This document shows positions 3,669 through 15,924 of a stretch of 24,000 nt of DNA, one piece after another. The stretch lies in NCBI GenBank assembly GCA_964245885.1, contig CAXTOX010000007.1, positions 22,480 through 46,479 of the forward strand, given 5' to 3'. Made by a program: the position numbers and the translations under genes. The notes beneath the pieces were generated by a model. That model worked only from the letters and a program-made list of their open reading frames with translations, did not search any database and was not told the origin of the DNA. This DNA comes from an uncultured Chthoniobacterales bacterium. Lineage in GTDB: Bacteria; Verrucomicrobiota; Verrucomicrobiia; Chthoniobacterales; SZAS-18. Within the stretch, counting starts at the first letter, position 1; each line of letters opens with the position of its first letter.

Positions 3669-3684
3669 GCGAGGCACGAAAATT

Positions 3685-3788
3685 TATCCGCAGATTACGC
3701 AGATTTTCGCAGATTGAAGAAATAGGGCAGAACAAAGCATCTTTTCCCTCTTCCGCTAATCCGCGAAAATCTGCGTAATCTGCGGATA
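3685..3788. repeat. REP-like inverted repeat, family 2 (GCAGATT-type); possible transcription terminator or RNA stabiliser after pspA
   Basis: Arm 3685-3715 (tatccgcagattacgcagattttcgcagatt) is the reverse complement of 3758-3788 (aatccgcgaaaatctgcgtaatctgcggata) with one mismatch. GCAGATT occurs three times directly within the arm. The region is AT-richer than its surroundings. Confidence 0.8.
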
Positions 3789-3817
3789 GATTCTGCTCCT
3801 CCCGCGAACGACCCGCC

Positions 3818-5503
3818 ATGCCTGCCCCAGACCTGACCGCACTCGCCCCGTGGGCGGCGGAGATGATCGCGCTCTACCAAAGCCACACCGCGAGCCAGTT
3901 CATTCTCAGCGGCAACGTCAACGACCGTTTCCTGCTCCCGCTTGGGCCTGGCAAGCCGGTGCTCGGCAGCCTGACGGAGTTTCTCGGCAAAGTGCTGCTG
4001 CCGCGCTTCGACGTGGTGCTCAGCTACGACCTCGGCAACGGCTTGCGCGTGGAACACGGCGGCGAGGCGTTCGCCCAGTGGCCCGCTTCCCAGCTCGGCA
4101 CCCCACTGCCGCGTGCGCCGCGTCCCGCCGTCGAGACGCTGACGCACTATTTTCGCTACAACGCCAACCTCGGCCGTCTGGGCAAACCCACCTTGCAAAT
4201 CGGCTGCTGGCTGCGTTCGGCCCACCTCATCGCGCCCGCCGTGCCCGGTACGGCGACCGACTACGACCTGAGCGCGCTGGCCCTGCTGATGCGCGACTGG
4301 GCCGGCGACGCGCTGTTGAACGATTCGCGTCTCGTGACATGCCTGATCGTGGACAACCTGAACGACTTGCATCCGTTGTTAGTCAACAATCCGCGCGTCG
4401 CCCGCATGTCGATCCCGCTGCCGACGACGGCGGAACTGCACACCGCGCTCGAAGGGCTTGCCCCCGCTGCTCCGGCCGCGCTCGCGGAGTTTGCGGGCAA
4501 GCTGGACGAACTGTCCGCCGCGCTCACCGGCTCGACGCTCACGGCCGTCGAAAATCTCGTCAAGCTCAAGGAATACCGCCGCGAACCGCTCCGCCCCACC
4601 GATCTCGTGGGCCTGAAGAAAGAACTCGTCGAACGCGAGGCCGGTGGCCTGATCGAATTCGTCGAACCCCGTCGCACGCTGGAGGATTTCCACGCGCCCG
4701 CCGCCATGAAGGACGCCCTGCGCGAGGACATCGCGCTCTGGCACGCGGGCGACACCGCTGCCTCGCCGATGGGTTACCTCATCTGTGGACCGGTCGGCAC
4801 GGGCAAGACGTTCCTCGTCGAATGCCTGGCGGGCGAGGCCGGCATCCCGGTGGTCAAGATCAAAAACTTCCGCGACAAGTGGGTCGGCAGCACGGAAGGC
4901 AACTTGGAAAAAATCTTTCGGCTCCTGCACGGGTTGGATCGCTGCTACGTGTTTATCGACGAGGCGGACCAGGCGCTTGGGCGGCGCGATCCGGGCGGCA
5001 ATGACAGCGGCCTGGGCGGCCGGGTTTACTCGATGTTCGCCGCCGAGATGAGCAACCCGTCGAACCGCGGGCGGATCGTGTGGGTATTAGCGTCGAGCCG
5101 CCCGGACCTGATCGAGGTCGATCTCAAGCGGCCCGGCCGCGTCGACGTGAAGTTGCCACTGTTCCCCACGGCGACGCCGGAGGAGAGTTTTGCACTGCTG
5201 CGCGCGTTGTGCCGTCGACGGGAGATCGTGCTAGATGAATCGGACCTCGCGGCGAACCGCGAGCGGATGCCCCTGCTTTTGACTCCTGGCGCGGCGGAAA
5301 CGCTCGCGTTGAAGATTTACCGCACGGCGAAAACCCGCCGGGTCTCCTCCGCCGATGCGCTGGCCGCGGCGCTGGCCGATTACCAGAACCCGGTACCGTT
5401 GCAAACGCTGCGGTTTCAGATCGCGCTGGCCGCCGCCGAGGCGAGCGACCGGAGCTTTGTGCCAGTGGCGTTCCGTGAAACAGTGGAAGCTAACCCGATT
5501 TGA
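3818..5503 (+). CDS. Classical-clade AAA+ ATPase (Cdc48/FtsH/Vps4-like ATPase module) with a ~300 aa N-terminal region of unknown, possibly degenerate AAA-like, fold
   Basis: Walker A is GPVGTGKTF (about 4787-4813) and Walker B is CYVFIDEADQ. An SRH-like region VLASSRPDLIEVDLKRPGRVD carries Arg fingers. The protein is 561 aa. Confidence 0.85.
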   Translation: MPAPDLTALAPWAAEMIALYQSHTASQFILSGNVNDRFLLPLGPGKPVLGSLTEFLGKVLLPRFDVVLSYDLGNGLRVEHGGEAFAQWPASQLGTPLPRAPRPAVETLTHYFRYNANLGRLGKPTLQIGCWLRSAHLIAPAVPGTATDYDLSALALLMRDWAGDALLNDSRLVTCLIVDNLNDLHPLLVNNPRVARMSIPLPTTAELHTALEGLAPAAPAALAEFAGKLDELSAALTGSTLTAVENLVKLKEYRREPLRPTDLVGLKKELVEREAGGLIEFVEPRRTLEDFHAPAAMKDALREDIALWHAGDTAASPMGYLICGPVGTGKTFLVECLAGEAGIPVVKIKNFRDKWVGSTEGNLEKIFRLLHGLDRCYVFIDEADQALGRRDPGGNDSGLGGRVYSMFAAEMSNPSNRGRIVWVLASSRPDLIEVDLKRPGRVDVKLPLFPTATPEESFALLRALCRRREIVLDESDLAANRERMPLLLTPGAAETLALKIYRTAKTRRVSSADALAAALADYQNPVPLQTLRFQIALAAAEASDRSFVPVAFRETVEANPI

Positions 5504-5529
5504 CGCGTGCCGCCGAAGGCGTCCATCAA

Positions 5530-5560
5530 GGTAGGGTCGCCTCGGAGAGGCGACCCTACC
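5530..5560. repeat. Perfect 14-bp-stem palindrome (REP family 1 relative) between the convergent AAA+ and rtcA genes; possible bidirectional terminator
   Basis: GGTAGGGTCGCCTC gga GAGGCGACCCTACC. It shares GGTAGGG and CCTCGGAGAG with the 431 and 8199 elements. There is no U tract on either side, so it looks more like a REP than a classical intrinsic terminator. Confidence 0.7.
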
Positions 5561-5595
5561 TTGGACAACCGGCCGCTTCGCGGCCTGTCAGGAAC

Positions 5596-6648
5596 CTACC
5601 TCGGTACGACGCGGACCTCCAACCCACTGGTGTTTAATGCTTCCTGCTGGAAGCGCACAGGCAGAAACGCCTCGATCACCCCGATGTTCGTCCGCGCGTG
5701 CGGCGACAAGCCGGCCGTGCGGAACGCCCCGCCACCGGCCAGCGCCATCGGCAGCAAAATCTGGTCGGTTAGGTATTCGCCCACGGGCAACCCGGCCGCG
5801 AGGTAGGCGCGAACCTGTTCCACCAGGCGGTCGGCCACGGCTTCGGCGCGCAAGCCGCGTTCACCGACCGCGCTGAAAACTTCCACGTGCGACTTCGACG
5901 CGACCTCGCCGACGAGCGCGAAACCTTGACCCCGCTCGGCCGGATGCTCGATGCATTCGCACACCGCCCGGCCCCAACGCAGACGTTTGTCCACCTGCAC
6001 GAAGGCGCGCTCCGCCACACCTGGCGGCAAACTGGCGGCATGTGCCACGACGCGGCGTGAGCCTTCCGCACCGCGGGTCAGCAGTTCCACCGGAACAAAC
6101 CGGTCGGTCGGCGTCACGTCCACCTCGATCTGACCACCTCCCGCCGGGTAGAAACCGGCGCGCATCAACGTCGCTTCCACCCGAGGGCCGAAGCGATGGA
6201 AGACCGGTAGGAAAGTGCGCGCTAGAAAATCGAAAGGAGGCGCGAGCGGATTGTGCGTGCCGCCTTCCAACGTCAAACGCGACGGTCCGGCGGCCAGCGC
6301 CAGCGCGGGCAGGATCGTTTGCAAAACGAGCGTCGTACTCCCCGCCGTGCCGACGGCAAAGCGGTAGTCGCCCGCGCGCACCACGCCAGGACGGAACACG
6401 AGTTCGCCCGCGCCGATTTCCGCGCCGTCGCACGCGGCGTCGCTGATCTCGACCGCCGCACGCACCGCCGTCAGGTGCTGCCGCAATAATCCCGGCTTCG
6501 CCCGGCCCGCGCGAATGTTCGTGATGCGGAAGGCGCGGCCCGTCACGAGCGACAGGGCGAGCGAGGTGCGCAGGATTTGTCCTCCGCCCTCGCCCGCCGC
6601 ACCGTCGATGGTGACCACCGGCGACGAACCGGCTGACCGCGTCTTCAC
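5596..6648 (-). CDS. rtcA: RNA 3'-terminal phosphate cyclase RtcA
   Basis: DGAAGEGGGQILRTSLALSLVTGRAFRITNIRAGRAKPGLLRQHLTAV matches the RtcA signature, including the RAGRAKPGL...H nucleotidylation region. A GTG start overlaps the rtcB stop (GTGA at 6648-6645), which implies translational coupling. Confidence 0.9.
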   Translation of the reverse strand: MKTRSAGSSPVVTIDGAAGEGGGQILRTSLALSLVTGRAFRITNIRAGRAKPGLLRQHLTAVRAAVEISDAACDGAEIGAGELVFRPGVVRAGDYRFAVGTAGSTTLVLQTILPALALAAGPSRLTLEGGTHNPLAPPFDFLARTFLPVFHRFGPRVEATLMRAGFYPAGGGQIEVDVTPTDRFVPVELLTRGAEGSRRVVAHAASLPPGVAERAFVQVDKRLRWGRAVCECIEHPAERGQGFALVGEVASKSHVEVFSAVGERGLRAEAVADRLVEQVRAYLAAGLPVGEYLTDQILLPMALAGGGAFRTAGLSPHARTNIGVIEAFLPVRFQQEALNTSGLEVRVVPR

Positions 6649-8156
6649 GCCGCGCCTCCCAGGCTGCCGTCGGCATCCTTGATGACGAACCGTGCCCGCA
6701 GGCGCGCGACTTCCGACGCGAGGCCGGCTGATTTCACGCTGCGCAGCACCTCGTCGAAATCCTTGTACGCCGCGGGTGCCTCATCCTTAGGATAGAACCG
6801 GCAGTTCGTCAGAATGTCGAGGTCGGTGAACTGCTGGTCCACCGTCTGCTGGTCGAACTCGCGGATGGCCGCCTTGCGCCCCTTGGCCCGGCCCGCGCCG
6901 TGGTTGACCGAATAGCAGCTCAACGCCGCGCCCGGTTCCGCGACCATGACGCTGCTACCCGCCGCCGGGTTGCCCGGCAGCAGGATGGGATGGCCCGTCT
7001 CGGCAAACGGCGTGCCGGCGAGCGCGTGGTGACCGCCCGGGTAGGCGCGGGTCGCCCCTTTGCGGTGCACCCAGGCCGGACGATTTCCCACGATCTCGCG
7101 CCGCGCGATGTTGTGGCTGATGAAGTACACCAGCCCGCCGGTCGTGCCGGGAATGATTTCCTGGAACGCTTCCAGCACGAGGGCGTTGATGAGCAGGTGG
7201 TTCACCGTGGCAAAGTTCGCGCCGAGGGCCATGTCGTCCAAGTACGCGTCGGCCTCGGGCGTGTCGAGGGGAGCATACACCAGTTCCTTGTCCTGGCCCG
7301 GCAACGGCAAACCCCAGCGCGCGAAGAACCCCTGTAACGCGTGGAACTGACCCATCGCCAGATTGTGCCCGAAGCCGCGCGAGCCGCAATGCGACAGGAA
7401 GGCGAGGCCGCCGTCGCGCAGGCCGAAACTCTCGGCCGTCGCGCGCAGGCGTTCGTCGCCGGACAGTTCCACCGCCTCGCACTCGCCGAAATGGTTGCCG
7501 CCGCCGTAGCTGCCGAGCTGCGTCATCTTTTCGTCGAACTTCGGGAAAGCGCCGCCGCTGATCAACCGGTCCAGACGCGAGCGGAGGGCGTCCGCCGTGC
7601 CGTCGTGGCCGACGTGCGACGCGTCCTCGCAATGCGCGGCCCACGCGGGCGGGATGCCCAGGGCTTCGCACACCTCGACGGACGCGCCTTCGGTCGCCAC
7701 GCGGCGGCCGAGTTCCGGCGAAACACGGCGTGACTTGCGCGCGGAACGCTGCCCACGACCGGCACCGGTTGGAGTGCGTTCGCAGATCGCGTCGATGAGC
7801 GAGCGGCGGACCGTGCGTTCCGCGACGGCGTCGGCGGGCAGGCCGAGGGCGAGCAGGCTCATGGAGCATTTGATGTCCACGCCGACCGGGCCGGGATAGA
7901 TGTGCGTGGGCGACACCATCACGCAGCCGACCGGCGCGCCGTAGCCCGCGTGGGCGTCGGGGTTGAGGACGAGGTCCGTCACGCCGGGCGCGCCGCGGGA
8001 GTTGAGAGCCTGTTCGAGGCAGCGCGCGTCGAAGCCCTGACGGATGGCTTCGGTGCCGATGACGGTGATCGGCTTGCCGTGCGACCCGCGCGCGGGCAGG
8101 AAGCCGGTGGCCTCGCCGGTGGCGGTGATGGGTGAAGGGATGGATTCAGGGTTCAT
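6645..8156 (-). CDS. rtcB: RNA ligase RtcB (3'-phosphate/5'-hydroxyl RNA-splicing ligase), long ~500 aa form
   Basis: Motifs present: NPDAHAGYG, GVDIKCSM, SYGGGNHFGE, HCGSRGFGH and VNHGAGR (the nucleophilic His motif). Confidence 0.9.
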   Translation of the reverse strand: MNPESIPSPITATGEATGFLPARGSHGKPITVIGTEAIRQGFDARCLEQALNSRGAPGVTDLVLNPDAHAGYGAPVGCVMVSPTHIYPGPVGVDIKCSMSLLALGLPADAVAERTVRRSLIDAICERTPTGAGRGQRSARKSRRVSPELGRRVATEGASVEVCEALGIPPAWAAHCEDASHVGHDGTADALRSRLDRLISGGAFPKFDEKMTQLGSYGGGNHFGECEAVELSGDERLRATAESFGLRDGGLAFLSHCGSRGFGHNLAMGQFHALQGFFARWGLPLPGQDKELVYAPLDTPEADAYLDDMALGANFATVNHLLINALVLEAFQEIIPGTTGGLVYFISHNIARREIVGNRPAWVHRKGATRAYPGGHHALAGTPFAETGHPILLPGNPAAGSSVMVAEPGAALSCYSVNHGAGRAKGRKAAIREFDQQTVDQQFTDLDILTNCRFYPKDEAPAAYKDFDEVLRSVKSAGLASEVARLRARFVIKDADGSLGGAA

Positions 8157-8198
8157 GGCAAGATCAGGTTGGAGTGAGGAAATGTGTGAGCAGGCTTC

Positions 8199-8354
8199 CC
8201 GCCGCAGGCGTCGTCAACAATGGGTAGGGATGGCTCTCCGAGCCGCTCCCTAACTTTTCTGGAAAGTGTTTCGCCGCAATGACAGTTAACCAGAGAACAA
8301 TAGGGATTGCCTCGGAGAGCCATCCCTACCCATTGTTGACGACGCCTGCGGCGG
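8199..8354. repeat. REP/BIME-like inverted repeat pair, family 1, inside the rsr-rtcB transcription unit
   Basis: Arm 8199-8252 (ccgccgcaggcgtcgtcaacaatgggtagggatggctctccgagccgctcccta) faces arm 8301-8354 (tagggattgcctcggagagccatccctacccattgttgacgacgcctgcggcgg). The spacer is about 48 nt. It has the same core as the 431-568 element. Confidence 0.8.
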
Positions 8355-8381
8355 CTCCAGGCATGATTTGAAAGGAAATTT

Positions 8382-8513
8382 ACGGCGACAAAATTGAAGT
8401 GACGTTTTACGTGCTCTACCACTGAGCTACGGTTCCGTGGAAAGTGGAACCGGCGGGACTCGAACCCGCGACCCGTCCGTGTATAGGGATGTAGTCACAT
8501 CGGCATTCGCCGC
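8382..8513 (-). ncRNA. Y RNA-like unit 4 (YrlA-type) with a circularly permuted tRNA-like module
   Basis: Minus strand. Terminal stem GCGGCGA/UCGCCGU, then AUGCC..GUGAC UACAU, paired 3' with AAAAC GUCAC. Inside are a T arm GCGGG-UUCGAGU-CCCGC, a 7-bp acceptor-like hairpin CGGUUCC/GGAACCG, and a D arm UA-GCUC-AGUGGUA-GAGC. The arm order T, acceptor, D is that reported for YrlA. Ends are approximate. Confidence 0.75.
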
Positions 8514-8543
8514 AAAATTTGGAAATGGATTAAAAGTGAGGAT

Positions 8544-8692
8544 GACCGACGGTTCGTGATGACAAGAGATTGGTGAAACGGTTTTCGATGCTCTCCCGTT
8601 GAGCTATTCGGCCTTGCGGCCGAACCGGGACTCGAACCCGGAACCGGCGAATTAAATGTAGTTCCACGCGGCATTCGTCACGAGAGCCGGTC
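8544..8692 (-). ncRNA. Y RNA-like unit 3 (YrlA-type) with a circularly permuted tRNA-like module
   Basis: Minus strand. Terminal stem UCGUGACGA/UCAUCACGA (one C-A mismatch) plus outer GACCG/CGGUC, then AUGCC..GUGGAAC UACAU, paired 3' with AAAAC C GUUUCAC. Inside are a T arm CCGGG-UUCGAGU-CCCGG, an acceptor-like 7-bp stem UUCGGCC-GCAA-GGCCGAA (GNRA loop), and a D arm UA-GCUC-AACGGGA-GAGC. Ends are approximate. Confidence 0.75.
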
Positions 8693-8699
8693 ATTCTGC

Positions 8700-8848
8700 G
8701 AGCGTGCCGACAACCGGCGGCAGGACGTTTTACTGAGCTATCCCGTTTTGAGGCGGGACCAGATGTCGAATCTGGGACCTCCCGCGCGAGGCTTTCACCT
8801 CGCGCGGGCGCTCTTACCATGTAGTCCGTGCCTGCATTCGGCACGCTC
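8700..8848 (-). ncRNA. Y RNA-like unit 2, whose tRNA-like module appears to be opened in the D loop rather than the anticodon stem
   Basis: Minus strand. Perfect 11-bp terminal stem GAGCGUGCCGA/UCGGCACGCUC, then AUGCA..GGAC UACAU, paired 3' with AAAAC GUCC. Inside are GGUAAGAGCG, an 11-bp GC hairpin CCCGCGCGAGG-UGAAAG-CCUCGCGCGGG, AGGUC, a T arm CCAGA-UUCGACA-UCUGG, an acceptor-like hairpin UCCCG..CGGGA, and UAGCUCAGU. Confidence 0.7.
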
Positions 8849-8876
8849 AAATTTTCTGCAAAGAACAAGGGGTTGA

Positions 8877-8939
8877 TCGCCGACAAGTTTCTGGTGAGAC
8901 CCTCACATGGTAAAATGTAGTCCCACCGGCATTCGGCGA
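8877..8939 (-). ncRNA. Y RNA-like unit 1, a minimal form without a tRNA-like module (YrlB-like?)
   Basis: Minus strand, starting 6 nt after the rsr stop. Perfect terminal stem UCGCCGA/UCGGCGA, then AUGCC GGUGGGAC UACAU...GUCUCACC (8 bp with one G-U). It has the same 5' motif as units 2-4 but only about 63 nt. Confidence 0.55.
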
Positions 8940-8944
8940 AAGGT

Positions 8945-10501
8945 TTACAGTGCGATTTGCTCGATCTGCTCCACCCAGTGACCCGCCCGCAGGTTGCCCT
9001 GCGCGAAGGCCGCCACGATCTCGAACACCGCGTCCGAGAAGCCGCCGACGTTAAGGATGTCCCCGCGTTCGGCCGCCTGCGTGCTCGCGTACGGCTGGAT
9101 GTCCAGGCACACCAGCCGGGCGCGCGGGTTGCGGGCGCGGAACGCCGACCATTCGGCCATCGTCGCCGTGCTGCGGCCCCCACCCTGCGCGTCCATCCAG
9201 GACATGTTGTCCGAGACGACGATCACGAGGTCGCCGGTCGCGCGCATCTTGTTCAGGTGCGCGAGTGGGGCCGAGCAGTTCGTCCCGCCGCTGGGCAGCG
9301 AGGCGAGCTTCTGCGCGTTGGTCATGACGCTGTCGCGGGCGTTGAGCTGGCACGGCACGACGCTGTCGCTGAAGGCCAGCACCTCCGCCGCCGGATTGCG
9401 CCGCAGGACGCTCGCCGCCACCAACGCGGCCACGTCGATGCAGCGCGTCTTGGTCGTGGACCCGGCGCGGTGGCCGGTCACGGGCGACTGCATGGAACCG
9501 GACACATCCGGGCAAACGTACACCTGTCCGTCGATGGCCGGGACGTTCTCCGTGGCGATCTCCATCGCGTCCTGGAGCGCGCCCCGCACGGTGGCGGGCA
9601 CCGCCTGGTCGGCGGCGTGGAACGCGGTCAGGAGTTGGTAGGGAAAGCACCGGGCGCGGCGCACCTTCTGCGGGTCGCGCAGACGGTAGGCGATACGGTG
9701 GGTAAGGTCCTGATCGTCGAACACGCCGTGGCGCGCGAAGGTGTTCAGGTTCATGCGCGTGGTCTGCCACGAGGCGTTCTCCGCGATGGCCTGCCAGGCG
9801 GCGCGGTCGAGGTCGAGCGCGGTCAGCATCTGGAAAGGCACGTCGGGCACGGCCTGGATGAAGCCACCCTTGAAGGCGTCGAACTGGCGTACCAACGGCG
9901 GCAACTGCGCGGCGTCGTGCGTGCGGCCGATCAACCAGCCGTACAGCGCCTCGCGCTGAGCGTTGGCCGGGCGCGGGTGCACCATCTTGACGACATCCGC
10001 CAGCGAAGGCGACTGGCCGACCGACGCGCGGAACACGCCCTCGTCGTCGCGGCGTTCCAACCAGCGGCGCACGAGGCGGCGCGGGGCGCTGCCGAGCGAC
10101 TTGCGGCCCGTGACGCCGCTGCGGACGATCTGCACGAAGCTGCGCAACGTGCGGCCGTCGTCGATCACGCGGTCAAAGACGCGTTCCAGCATCGGTACGT
10201 CGAGCGTGGCCAGCGCGGCGCAAAGCAGGGCGGGCGTGTCCTTCATGAAGCCACGCGTGCGGCAGTAGATCGCCGTCTGCGCCACGAACGCCGCGTCGGC
10301 CTGGCCGGCCAGCGCGAGAAGGCGTTCCAACTGCGCTTCCGCGCTCGCGTAGAACGTCGTGTTCAGGCAACCGGTGACCGCATACTGCGCGAGGGCATGC
10401 CGGGGCGGCAGCGCGAAGGCCGGGCCGCCGGCCTCATTGCGGGCGTTCGTCCGGGGCAGGATCGCCCCGGCAACGGTCTGGAAGAGAGTCTTGTTGGCCA
10501 T
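8945..10501 (-). CDS. rsr: Ro60-related protein Rsr (TROVE domain plus C-terminal vWA/MIDAS)
   Basis: MANKTLFQTVAG...NEAGGPAFAL...QYAVTGCLNTTFY is a typical TROVE N-terminus. The MIDAS motif is CPDVSGSM. I prefer the ATG at 10501 over the ORF-track start at 10552, whose extra 17 aa are Arg/Thr-rich. Confidence 0.9.
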   Translation of the reverse strand: MANKTLFQTVAGAILPRTNARNEAGGPAFALPPRHALAQYAVTGCLNTTFYASAEAQLERLLALAGQADAAFVAQTAIYCRTRGFMKDTPALLCAALATLDVPMLERVFDRVIDDGRTLRSFVQIVRSGVTGRKSLGSAPRRLVRRWLERRDDEGVFRASVGQSPSLADVVKMVHPRPANAQREALYGWLIGRTHDAAQLPPLVRQFDAFKGGFIQAVPDVPFQMLTALDLDRAAWQAIAENASWQTTRMNLNTFARHGVFDDQDLTHRIAYRLRDPQKVRRARCFPYQLLTAFHAADQAVPATVRGALQDAMEIATENVPAIDGQVYVCPDVSGSMQSPVTGHRAGSTTKTRCIDVAALVAASVLRRNPAAEVLAFSDSVVPCQLNARDSVMTNAQKLASLPSGGTNCSAPLAHLNKMRATGDLVIVVSDNMSWMDAQGGGRSTATMAEWSAFRARNPRARLVCLDIQPYASTQAAERGDILNVGGFSDAVFEIVAAFAQGNLRAGHWVEQIEQIAL

Positions 10502-10583
10502 GGAAGTGCAGGTTGACGTTTGAGTCGCCCGCCGTCGGTTCGATGTTCGCACCGGACGGACGTTGAGCGATGAACCCTTCTAT

Positions 10584-10598
10584 CGCTAGGCACGTGCC
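10584..10598 (-). promoter_or_regulatory. Sigma54 (-24/-12) promoter for rsr-Y RNA-rtcBA
   Basis: The minus strand reads TGGCACGTGCCTAGC. This matches TGGCACG-N4-TTGC, with GG and GC at the canonical spacing and one mismatch (TAGC for TTGC). It lies about 85 nt upstream of the rsr ATG, next to divergent rtcR, which is a sigma54 activator. Confidence 0.7.
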
Positions 10599-10743
10599 AG
10601 CGAAGATTTCTCCAATTGCTTTCAATGCGTAAATTCCTTTCGCGCAGAGAGAAAAATTTATTTTGGCATGGCATCGTGTTAAGCAGGGCGCATTGTTGCT
10701 AGCACCAACCTAGATTTATCGCTAGCTATTTAGCGTATCCGCC

Positions 10744-12369
10744 ATGCCTACCAAGAAGCTCGTCGTCCTCGGTTTACTCGGGACCCAGTTGGATTCGGGC
10801 AAGAACGCCCACCGCTGGGAAAACTGGCGGCCCACCGTCTCGCTCTGCCAACACGACGATCTGCTCGTCGCGCGGCTCGAACTACTCCACGACCGCCGCC
10901 ACACCAGCCTCACCGAAACCGTGACGACGGACATCGCCGGGGTCTCACCGGAGACGGAAGTTCACGGGCACCTCGTGGAATTCAGCGACCCGTGGGACTT
11001 CGAAGAGGTCTACGGCTCGCTGGCGGACTTCGCGCGCGGCTATCCCTTCGACCCGGAAAAAGAAGACTACCTCGTCCACATCACCACGGGCACGCACGTC
11101 GCTCAGATCTGCCTCTTCCTGCTGACGGAGTCGCGACGTTTCCCGGGACGGCTCATCCAGACTTCCCCGCCCGCCGAACGCCAGCCCCGGCACCGCGCGG
11201 CCGCCGGGCGGTACTCCATCATCGACCTGGACCTGTCGCGCTACGACCGCATCGCGGCGCGCTTCGCCGAAGAACAGCGGGAAGCGCGCACGTTCCTCAA
11301 AAACGGCATCGCCACGCGCAACGCCGCGTTCAACCGCATGATCGAGGAGATCGAGCAGGTGGCCGTCGCGTCGCGCGAGCCGATGCTGTTCATGGGGCCG
11401 ACCGGCGCGGGGAAATCGTCGCTGGCGCGCAAGGTGTTCGAGTTGAAACGCGGCCGGCACCAGCTCGCCGGGCAGTTCGTGGAGGTCAACTGCGCGACCC
11501 TGCGCGGGGACACTGCGGTGAGCACGCTCTTCGGCCACGTGCGGGGAGCGTTCACCGGGGCGCAGCGCGACCGTCCGGGACTGCTGCGCACGGCGAACGG
11601 CGGGCTGTTGTTCCTCGACGAAATCGGTGAACTCGGCCCCGACGAACAGGCCATGCTGCTGCGCGCGCTGGAGGAAAAACGCTTCCTGCCCGTCGGCGCG
11701 GACCAGGAAGCGGTGAGTGACTTCCAGCTCATCGCCGGAACGAACTGCGACCTGTCCGGGGCGGTGGCCAAGGGCGAGTTCCGCGAGGATCTGCTGGCGC
11801 GGATCAACCTGTGGACCTTCGCACTGCCAGGGCTCGCGCAACGGTCCGAGGACATCGCGCCCAACCTCGACCACGAACTCGAACGCGCGGCGCAACGGCT
11901 CGGCCGGCGCGTCGGCATGGCCCGGGACGTGCGCGGGGCGTTCCTGGATTTCGCGCGTTCGGGCGAGGCGAAGTGGAGCGCGAACTTCCGCGACCTGAAC
12001 GCCGCCGTCACGCGCATGGCCACGCTCGCGCCGGGCGGACGGATCACGCGCGAGGTGCTGGCCAGGGAGCTTATCCGTCTGCGGGCTGGCTGGCAGAACG
12101 CGAACGGCACGGAGAGCGGCCGGGCGGGCACGGGCGACGAGGCATTGCTGGTCGAAACGCTGGGCGCGGACGGGGCAGCCTCGCTCGACTTATTCGACCG
12201 GGCGCAGCTTGCCTGCGTAGTGCGGGTTTGCCGCGACAGCAAAACCTTGAGCGAGGCCGGCCGGCGGCTCTTCGCGGTGACCCGGGGCAAACGCAAGGTT
12301 GCCAACGATGCCGACCGGCTGCGCAAATATCTCGCGCGTTTCGGCCTGGTTTGGCCGTGCGGCGTCTAG
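10744..12369 (+). CDS. rtcR: Sigma54-dependent transcriptional activator RtcR (CARF-like sensor N-domain, AAA+ core, C-terminal HTH)
   Basis: N-terminus KLVVLGLLGTQLDSGKNAHRWENWRPTVSLC is RtcR-type. Walker A is GPTGAGKS, the sigma54-contact loop is GAFTGA, and Walker B is LLFLDEIGEL. It is divergent from rsr. Confidence 0.9.
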   Translation: MPTKKLVVLGLLGTQLDSGKNAHRWENWRPTVSLCQHDDLLVARLELLHDRRHTSLTETVTTDIAGVSPETEVHGHLVEFSDPWDFEEVYGSLADFARGYPFDPEKEDYLVHITTGTHVAQICLFLLTESRRFPGRLIQTSPPAERQPRHRAAAGRYSIIDLDLSRYDRIAARFAEEQREARTFLKNGIATRNAAFNRMIEEIEQVAVASREPMLFMGPTGAGKSSLARKVFELKRGRHQLAGQFVEVNCATLRGDTAVSTLFGHVRGAFTGAQRDRPGLLRTANGGLLFLDEIGELGPDEQAMLLRALEEKRFLPVGADQEAVSDFQLIAGTNCDLSGAVAKGEFREDLLARINLWTFALPGLAQRSEDIAPNLDHELERAAQRLGRRVGMARDVRGAFLDFARSGEAKWSANFRDLNAAVTRMATLAPGGRITREVLARELIRLRAGWQNANGTESGRAGTGDEALLVETLGADGAASLDLFDRAQLACVVRVCRDSKTLSEAGRRLFAVTRGKRKVANDADRLRKYLARFGLVWPCGV

Positions 12370-15712: not shown

Positions 15713-15924
15713 CAGCCCCGGCAGGGGCGCAAGCGTTTAGCCCACGGCGCGAGCCGTGGGAAAGCCTGCGGCACCACAAAGCCCCGGCAGGAGCGCAAGA
15801 AAAGACGCAGGCCAGCGGGACCACCGAGCGGGTGTTCTTCCGCCCCTGCCGGGGCTGGGCTGGTGGGTGCTGGTTCCCCACGGCTCACGCCGTGGGCTAA
15901 ACTCTTGCGCCCCTGCCGGGGCTG
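15713..15924. repeat. REP cluster, family 3: nested inverted copies of CAGCCCCGGCAGGGGCGCAAG-N-TTTAGCCCACGGCG-N-GAGCCGTGGG
   Basis: The 48-nt unit at 15713-15760 and its reverse complement at 15877-15924 differ at 2 positions. Partial inverted copies lie at 15780-15799 and 15841-15858. Each full unit holds the hairpin CCCACGGC-nnnn-GCCGTGGG. The cluster sits between convergent genes. Confidence 0.8.

Follow-up and report, generated by a model that had tools for sequence, protein, structure and literature searches.

A 24,000-nt stretch of contig CAXTOX010000007.1 (assembly GCA_964245885.1; hereafter the window, meaning the whole stretch of DNA analysed) from an uncultured Chthoniobacterales bacterium very probably harbors an RNA damage-response operon of the rsr-Y RNA-rtcBA type, controlled by RtcR and sigma-54, in a Chthoniobacterales-like Verrucomicrobium from soil or lichen. 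The case is evenly poised that one of its RNAs (unit 2) represents an undescribed class of bacterial Y RNA, with the Ro60-binding stem set in the D loop of a complete cloverleaf, that together with a stem-only unit and two YrlAs forms an ordered paralogous set, three to seven per operon, in the Verrucomicrobiota and Acidobacteriota. The components identified in silico are four proteins with their catalytic or signature motifs, a conserved -24/-12 promoter and, on the coding strand of the gap between rsr and rtcB, four structured Y RNA-like units.

Gene content and promoter

Based on the open reading frame (ORF) map, the minus strand carries in order a sigma-54 promoter, rsr, a 788-nt non-coding spacer, rtcB and rtcA, with rtcR divergent on the plus strand. 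The identities, coordinates, strands and order of the four genes had been proposed in a first-pass annotation made without database searches, and the ORF map and profile searches agree with it throughout, placing the 8945-10501 protein in TROVE/Ro60 and the 10744-12369 protein in the RtcR family; the motifs it quoted are likewise present, namely DVSGSM (Rsr), GAFTGA (RtcR) and the GTGA at which the rtcB stop overlaps the rtcA start.

RtcR (10744..12369, plus strand) is a sigma-54 enhancer-binding activator with an N-terminal RtcR/CARF-like domain, an AAA+ core that contains the GAFTGA motif at residues 268-273 and a C-terminal DNA-binding region. It matches the Pfam families RtcR (2.4e-85) and Sigma54_activat (4.7e-47), NCBIfam RNA_repair_RtcR with 796 bits (above the cut-off of 650) and the PADLOC model 'RtcR--CARF_AAA_HTH' (1.3e-248, residues 4-537). 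Rsr (8945..10501, minus strand) is a Ro60 orthologue in which a TROVE/HEAT ring is followed by a vWA domain with the metal ion-dependent adhesion site (MIDAS) motif DVSGSM; the Pfam matches are vWA_Ro60 (2.7e-19) and a partial TROVE (4.5e-6), and the protein aligns at full length to the Rsr of Deinococcus radiodurans (PDB 2NVO; 7.6e-22, residues 18-503) and also to the Ro60 structures 9NEN and 1YVP. Translation of rsr probably starts at the ATG at 10501 and not at the upstream GTG at 10552, because homologues align from residue 1, MANKTLFQ.

The two remaining proteins belong to RNA end processing. RtcB (6645..8156, minus strand) is a 3'-phosphate/5'-OH RNA ligase of the long (archaeal or Thermus-like) class (Pfam RtcB, 8e-94), and alignment to the Pyrococcus horikoshii enzyme (PDB 4DWR; 3.9e-58) matches DIKC, GGGNHF, HCGSRG, SHNI and NHGAGR to its Asp/Cys/His metal ligands and GMP-histidine motifs. 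RtcA (5596..6648, minus strand) is an RNA 3'-terminal phosphate cyclase (Pfam RTC, 1.6e-79, plus RTC_insert; NCBIfam equivalog 408 bits, cut-off 352), the GTG start of which overlaps the TGA stop of rtcB at the junction GCGCGGCGTGAAGACG.

Upstream of rsr, the element TGGCACGTGCCTAGCG at 10584..10599 on the minus strand, ~85-100 nt from the rsr ATG, fits the sigma-54 -24/-12 pattern with two mismatches and reads as TGGCAC-N5-NAGC. Counts of sigma-54 consensus matches in the window alone are not significant (eight found, 10.5 expected) and thus uninformative; the element was accepted as a putative sigma-54 promoter because of its conservation across loci. TGGCAC-N5-NNGC precedes rsr in 30 of 40 related loci, which bears out the promoter placed there by the first-pass annotation, and TTGGCAYG...AGC is the only long conserved block in a rtcR-rsr intergenic alignment of six close genomes.

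Y RNA-like units of the rsr-rtcB spacer

The spacer (8157-8944) has a GC content of 55%, the window as a whole 66%, and its predicted fold is far more stable than those of shuffled versions (z = -6.9). The roughly 790 nt of structured non-coding sequence described at first pass correspond to 788 nt here. Four units within it possess the published Ro60-site motif GNCGAAN0-1G (PMC4201824), followed by CUA (ACUAC) and closed by UUGUCGNC. In every unit the motif lies on the 5' strand of a terminal stem, on the same strand as the adjoining rsr, and binding of the stems by Rsr is predicted from their motif and their position beside rsr. A relaxed form of the motif, GAA-N0-1-G and then a YUA/AUA element, occurs downstream of rsr at 2.8 per kb compared to a background of 0.22 per kb (~13x).

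Relationships to Rfam families were visible only in E-value mode on short stretches, where matches to YrlA (RF02553) were significant for units 1, 3 and 4, though below the gathering score of 69 bits. Unit 1 (type A; 8877..8939, minus strand) is a short hairpin made up of nothing but the Ro60-binding stem (GCCGAAUG ... CUUGUCGGC), without a tRNA-like domain, and matches YrlA through the stem alone with the inner domain deleted (34.8 bits, E 3.2e-6). Compensatory changes affect 6 of 15 pairs among its orthologues (n = 11 alignment), and type A is the first array unit in every locus where it was identified. The unit resembles the 'long hairpin' Y RNA type of YrlB and Yrn2 (PMC4201824); against the YrlB family itself (RF02565; gathering score 97) it scores 15.3 bits and does not match.

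Units 3 and 4 follow the inner order of the YrlA family (T arm, closed acceptor stem, D arm; crystal structure 6CU1) within a Ro stem, whereas units 1 and 2 do not. Unit 3 (type C; 8553..8681, minus strand) is a canonical YrlA-like RNA, with a Ro stem, a T arm, a 7-bp closed acceptor stem capped by a GCAA loop, and a D arm, and is matched over its full length (1-114; 53.1 bits, E 6.1e-11). Orthologues are present in the related loci L001, L002, L004 and L006, where the 3' strand of the Ro stem is UUGUCGUC; the window has UUGUCAUC, which results in a C*A mismatch at a position that is C-G in the orthologues. Unit 4 (type D; 8379..8513, minus strand) is also canonical YrlA-like, with an extra V stem-loop, a T arm, a 7-bp acceptor-like stem with a 9-nt loop and a D arm, and is the best match to YrlA (full length; 64.8 bits, E 2.7e-14). 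Its minimum-free-energy fold places the T, acceptor-stem and D hairpins inside the Ro stem, and orthologues occur in L002, L004 and L009. The acceptor stem resembles the 7-bp stem of Mycobacterium smegmatis YrlA, an RNA that is cleaved by RNase P. Weak transfer-messenger RNA (tmRNA) and tRNA hits over unit 4 were attributed to the YrlA tRNA-like module, since ARAGORN finds no tRNA and no tmRNA in the window.

Unit 2 and the D-loop-permuted type B

Unit 2 (type B; 8700..8848, minus strand), the topology of which differs from YrlA and had been missed in the first reading, combines a Ro60-binding stem with a tRNA-like cloverleaf, the circular permutation of which falls in the D loop. Its inner sequence runs GGUA-GAGC, G, a long anticodon-like hairpin, AGGUC, a T arm (CCAGA-UUCGACA-UCUGG), a closed acceptor hairpin and UA-GCUC-AGU. 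Both universal D-arm halves (UAGCUCAGU...GGUAGAGC) are present but swapped, enclosing the other three arms, which describes a tRNA with a closed acceptor stem and a D loop opened onto the Ro60-binding stem; canonical YrlA is opened instead at the anticodon loop (10.1101/312249). Because the break point lies in the D loop and an anticodon-like arm is kept, unit 2 has no match to Rfam YrlA or YrlB even at E-values up to 10.

A covariance model (R1) built from five close type B copies using the permuted structure identified 26 copies above 54 bits in 25 loci from the Verrucomicrobiota and Acidobacteriota. In the alignment of these copies, which was itself fitted to R1, pairing holds in 96% of cells and compensatory changes occur in 33 of 44 pairs, including 9 of 10 in the anticodon-like arm, 4 of 5 in the T arm and 6 of 6 in the acceptor hairpin. 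The split D stem is invariant GAGC/GCUC save for one compensatory CAGC/GCUG. None of 500 shuffles reached the observed values and sliding the partners reduced pairing to 36-47%, while RNAalifold, a partial check on the same alignment, returned the same helices including the split D stem.

The permutation could also be reversed in silico by rejoining the D loop and opening the acceptor hairpin. ARAGORN called a tRNA in 18 of 25 de-permuted type B copies, compared to none of 26 copies in native order, none of 500 shuffles and none of 25 copies with the D halves unswapped. The de-permuted unit 2 of the window itself was missed by ARAGORN on account of its 11-bp anticodon-like arm. Across type B, the anticodon-like loops vary in both length and sequence, indicating that these RNAs are not decoders. 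One copy (L021:2499-2631) has a 7-nt loop, ACCUAGC, in which ARAGORN reads a CUA (amber) anticodon after de-permutation; this is probably coincidental, other copies having other loop sizes. By inspection, the positions that make tertiary contacts in the tRNA core are filled in type B (U8, A14, G15, G18, G19, G26, A44, G46, C48, U54 and A58), and the domain may fold into an L shape.

No description of a D-loop-permuted Y RNA class, or of ordered multi-paralogue Y RNA arrays, was found in the accessible literature or Rfam 15, a scope outside which lie Burroughs and Aravind 2016 and the supplementary tables of Chen 2014, such that an earlier description is possible; a literature search for Y RNAs in the Verrucomicrobia found nothing. 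Thirteen matches of a type B junction 16-mer in viral contigs were set aside as chance hits, none of which fits R1.

Array size and distribution among related loci

A set of 80 related loci was collected by Rsr similarity, with the best Rsr matches in a lichen 'PVC group' metagenome-assembled genome (MAG; 91%) and in Chthoniobacterales MAGs (89%). The synteny comparison proposed at first pass shows the order rtcR (divergent), rsr, spacer array and rtcB recurring in ~31 loci from the Verrucomicrobiota, Planctomycetota and others, with rtcA also following rtcB in the Chthoniobacterales-like loci and several more. The cultured Brevifollis gellanilyticus NBRC 108608 (L046) is one carrier of the full series rtcR, rsr, array, rtcB and rtcA. 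Several Acidobacteriota loci have an rsr without an rtcB within 6 kb.

A census by the relaxed motif of the 31 loci with rtcB downstream of rsr found three, four, five, six and seven units in 6, 10, 8, 5 and 2 loci, respectively. The first-pass annotation had singled out an array of four units rather than two; four is indeed double the number in Salmonella, but it is the mode for this clade and no peculiarity of the locus. The arrays of the clade are larger than the pair of Y RNAs that has to date been named in Salmonella, in M. smegmatis and in D. radiodurans (PMC4201824). Seven units are found in L012 and L026 and six in L013, L014, L016, L017 and L021. The five units of L001, the closest relative, reflect duplication of a shortened type B, and in L002 the short form is the sole type B. 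These short variants (L001:7821-7932 and L002:7653-7762) lack the anticodon-like arm, with the long and short forms in tandem in L001. In Verrucomicrobiota loci type B starts ~100-470 nt from the rsr stop, and in two Pyrinomonadaceae loci (L049:1206-1347 and L066:2800-2944) it lies 3-5 kb upstream of rsr and not downstream.

Flanking genes and possible mobility

The neighbors of the operon are unrelated to RNA repair and include OmpA-family, PspA-like, AAA ATPase, DUF4272, SerA-like dehydrogenase and glycosyltransferase genes. The AAA ATPase (3818-5503, plus strand), a convergent neighbor of rtcA, has weak similarity to the PADLOC IetA models (best E 6.4e-9), the sole PADLOC hit besides RtcR. 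Nucleotide homology to L001-L009, in which Rsr is 73-91% identical, ends exactly at the rtcA and rtcR ends (5600 and 12365), and this confinement to 5600-12365 is what would be expected of the self-contained module suggested at first pass. Four flanking proteins tested against the 80 loci had no match in any. The absence of flanking synteny even at ~90% Rsr identity points to a self-contained, portable cassette in differing contexts and supports the view that its five parts appear to relocate or transfer as a unit.

Such portability could also fit a main role in biological conflict, with the cassette acting as a mobile counter-measure against the tRNA- or rRNA-cleaving toxins of competitors or phages and the Y RNAs serving as decoys or sensors for anticodon nucleases instead of nuclease tethers. 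The unrelated flanks would agree with this, as would the fact that Rsr identity ignores phylum borders (~60-68% for both Acidobacteriota and Verrucomicrobiota), though no toxin, immunity or mobility genes are adjacent and a PADLOC scan of the four operon proteins recognized RtcR alone, the other three having no match. A role of RNA repair in conflicts has been proposed (Burroughs and Aravind 2016, as cited in PMC7790460) and the rtc genes of E. coli are induced by colicin D and VapC (PMC7790460), but the decoy idea is without experimental precedent. Overall, we consider a conflict role possible but unlikely; it is compatible with an RNA damage-response operon, and the one does not exclude the other.

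A palindromic insertion and the probable continuity of the transcript

Between unit 4 and rtcB lies a second feature missed in the first reading, a 156-nt palindrome (8199..8354, no strand assigned) with 54-nt arms that are 94% complementary and a 48-nt loop. A second copy (432-558; 43-nt arms, 93% complementary) is located just upstream of the OmpA-family ORF. The core of the palindrome, TAGGGATGGCTCTCCGAGCCGCTCCCT, recurs there as another inverted doublet; the two copies have a 27-nt core in common and differ in their outer arms. A 20-nt core occurs in >120 metagenome contigs, in most of them together with an inverted partner (form GGACGnnTCGGAGAnnCGTCCCTACC). None of the 80 related loci contains it, and nucleotide homology to L001-L003 passes over the hairpin. 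With short palindromic units repeated as intergenic inverted doublets, two of them in 24 kb, and a core common in metagenomes, the hairpin is a repetitive extragenic palindromic (REP)/REPIN-like interspersed element inserted in this genome only and no part of the conserved operon, albeit with outer arms that are unlike between the two copies of the window. A fifth operon RNA was considered for this hairpin and rejected, on account of the second copy at 432-558, the >120 unrelated contigs with the core and its absence from the 80 loci. The four-unit RNA array of the first-pass annotation stands as four Y RNA-like units, with 156 of the 788 nt belonging to an inserted palindrome and none of the units reaching the Rfam gathering score.

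Further palindromes of the window lie outside the operon. Two Acido-Lenti-1 motifs (RF01687; 15714-15760, minus strand, and 15877-15923, plus strand; 39 and 48 bits, above the gathering score) are arranged back to back as an inverted repeat with 51-nt arms in the gap between the SerA-like gene and an ORF of unknown function, and a third, related inverted repeat (15780-15856) lies between them. Another inverted repeat (3681-3792), with 47-nt arms of CGCAGATT-like direct repeats, separates the PspA-like and AAA ATPase ORFs.

The position of the REP-like hairpin raises the alternative of two transcription units, in which the sigma-54 promoter would drive rsr and the Y RNAs only and rtcBA would be expressed separately, split off by the hairpin or by an unrecognized promoter or terminator within 8157-8378. 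REP elements elsewhere in bacteria stabilize upstream RNA and alter downstream expression, and a hairpin with 54-nt arms and 94% complementarity could act in this way; the rsr-rtcB distance also ranges from 540 to 3100 nt among relatives. The hairpin lacks a U-tract, however, and no terminator-like or promoter-like site was found there, a generic sigma-70 promoter and terminator scan having given nothing convincing within 5300-10800 and no second TGGCAC-N5-NNGC having been found upstream of rtcB. The relatives all lack the hairpin and have rtcB directly after the array, and in Salmonella rsr-yrlBA-rtcBA is one RtcR-dependent operon (PMC7790460). Separate transcription of rtcBA is accordingly judged improbable, and the insertion is taken to be lineage-specific and at most to modulate processing or stability between the Y RNA array and the rtcBA message.

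A reading of the spacer as a set of degenerate tRNA genes or tRNA-derived repeats that are unconnected with Ro60 and resemble Y RNAs only as a by-product is highly improbable: the T-arm and D-arm consensus of the units, the weak tmRNA and tRNA hits over unit 4 and the tRNA-like scores of de-permuted type B domains would fit, but ARAGORN calls no tRNA in either the window or the type B copies in native order, each unit is enclosed by a GNCGAAUG / UUGUCGNC stem that is the published Ro60-site motif, the stems are maintained by compensatory changes across two phyla, the units invariably follow rsr on its own strand, at ~13x background density, and the anticodon-like loops vary in size and sequence.

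Several observations weigh against a single RtcR-controlled operon with Rsr-bound Y RNAs. Rsr scores 86 bits against the NCBIfam Rsr equivalog, for which the cut-off is 900, marking it as a divergent Ro60, and at Rfam gathering thresholds no Y RNA is found in the spacer, with all units below the 69 bits of YrlA. Unit 3 has its mismatch in the conserved Ro60-binding helix, the -12 element is TAGCG rather than TTGCA, and the 54-nt-arm hairpin, placed immediately before rtcB, could separate expression of rtcBA from the part of the transcript that precedes it. Co-transcription and induction are presumed by analogy to other systems, as is processing of the Y RNAs, and the partner of the Rsr-Y ribonucleoprotein (RNP) is a matter of candidates, PNPase or RtcB, even in model organisms.

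Comparison with known systems

The locus matches the rsr-yrlBA-rtcBA architecture of Salmonella enterica Typhimurium, as the first-pass annotation had recognized: both have a divergent RtcR (CARF-AAA+-helix-turn-helix), a sigma-54 promoter, rsr as the first gene and then Y RNAs, rtcB and rtcA, and the Y RNAs of both combine a GNCGAA Ro stem with a tRNA-like module. The window differs in having four Y RNAs instead of two, a D-loop-permuted domain in unit 2 that is unlike YrlA or YrlB, a long archaeal-type RtcB, a divergent Rsr, the REP-like hairpin and a Verrucomicrobiota host. The occurrence in a 'very different lineage' had been emphasized at first pass; the host does belong to the Verrucomicrobiota, but this is expected, since rsr-Y RNA-rtcBA operons have been reported as widespread across multiple phyla (PMC7790460; bioRxiv 10.1101/312249) and YrlA-like RNAs adjoin rsr in >250 species (PMC4201824, 10.1101/312249, PMC7790460). 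The rtcR-rtcBA system of E. coli shares the RtcR regulator, sigma-54 dependence and a translationally coupled rtcB-rtcA pair, and is without rsr and Y RNAs.

As in the Rsr/Yrn1/Yrn2/PNPase system of D. radiodurans and with YrlA and YrlB of M. smegmatis, several Y RNAs would derive from one polycistronic precursor, one of them tRNA-like and one a plain long hairpin akin to unit 1. Those loci are not RtcR-controlled and are unlinked to rtcBA, with two named Y RNAs each compared to four here, and D. radiodurans Yrn1 has yet another arm order. Permuted tRNA modules with the acceptor stem closed by a loop are also known from the circularly permuted tRNA genes of red algae and some archaea; these are precursors processed into functional tRNAs, whereas in unit 2 the break lies in the D loop and is filled by the Ro60-binding stem, and the anticodon-like loops of its class are unconserved.

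Proposed mechanism and significance

By analogy to work in Salmonella, E. coli, Deinococcus and Mycobacterium, RtcR would be kept inactive by its CARF-like domain until 5' tRNA halves with a 2',3'-cyclic phosphate bind there. What this domain senses had been posed as a question at first pass and has largely been answered in Salmonella with that ligand; oligomerization of RtcR also has precedent (PMC7790460, PMC10159003). Ligand-bound RtcR would oligomerize through the AAA+ domain and open the sigma-54 promoter at ~10590, giving a single transcript through rsr, the Y RNA array, rtcB and rtcA. The Y RNAs would be excised from this precursor, as from the polycistronic precursors of M. smegmatis and D. 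radiodurans (PMC4201824), and stabilized by Rsr bound to the GNCGAAUG stem, in keeping with the view of Y RNA as a tRNA mimic and Rsr ligand (PMC4201824, 10.1101/312249). The four RNAs would present different modules to their surroundings (none, one D-loop-permuted tRNA and two anticodon-loop-permuted tRNAs), and the several Rsr RNPs may serve to tether or gate a partner (PNPase or RtcB, for instance) on damaged structured RNA. RtcA would convert 3'-phosphate ends into cyclic phosphate and RtcB would seal broken tRNA or rRNA, also removing the inducer.

Considered as an operon, the locus contributes little, both the rsr-Y RNA-rtcBA arrangement and its control by RtcR and sigma-54 being established and recognized as widespread. 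Its value is in the RNAs, where the clade has arrays of three to seven distinct Y RNAs and one conserved class is a tRNA mimic with a break point unlike that of YrlA. If type B is the class proposed here, the Ro60 stem of unit 2 would project from the tRNA elbow and not replace the anticodon loop, and several functionally distinct Rsr RNPs would arise from one damage-induced transcript. Candidate roles of the tRNA-like modules in bacterial Y RNAs include nuclease tether, RtcB cofactor and decoy, and a natural series of stem-only, D-loop-permuted and anticodon-loop-permuted RNAs bound by one Ro60 would be a comparative handle on the function of the module.

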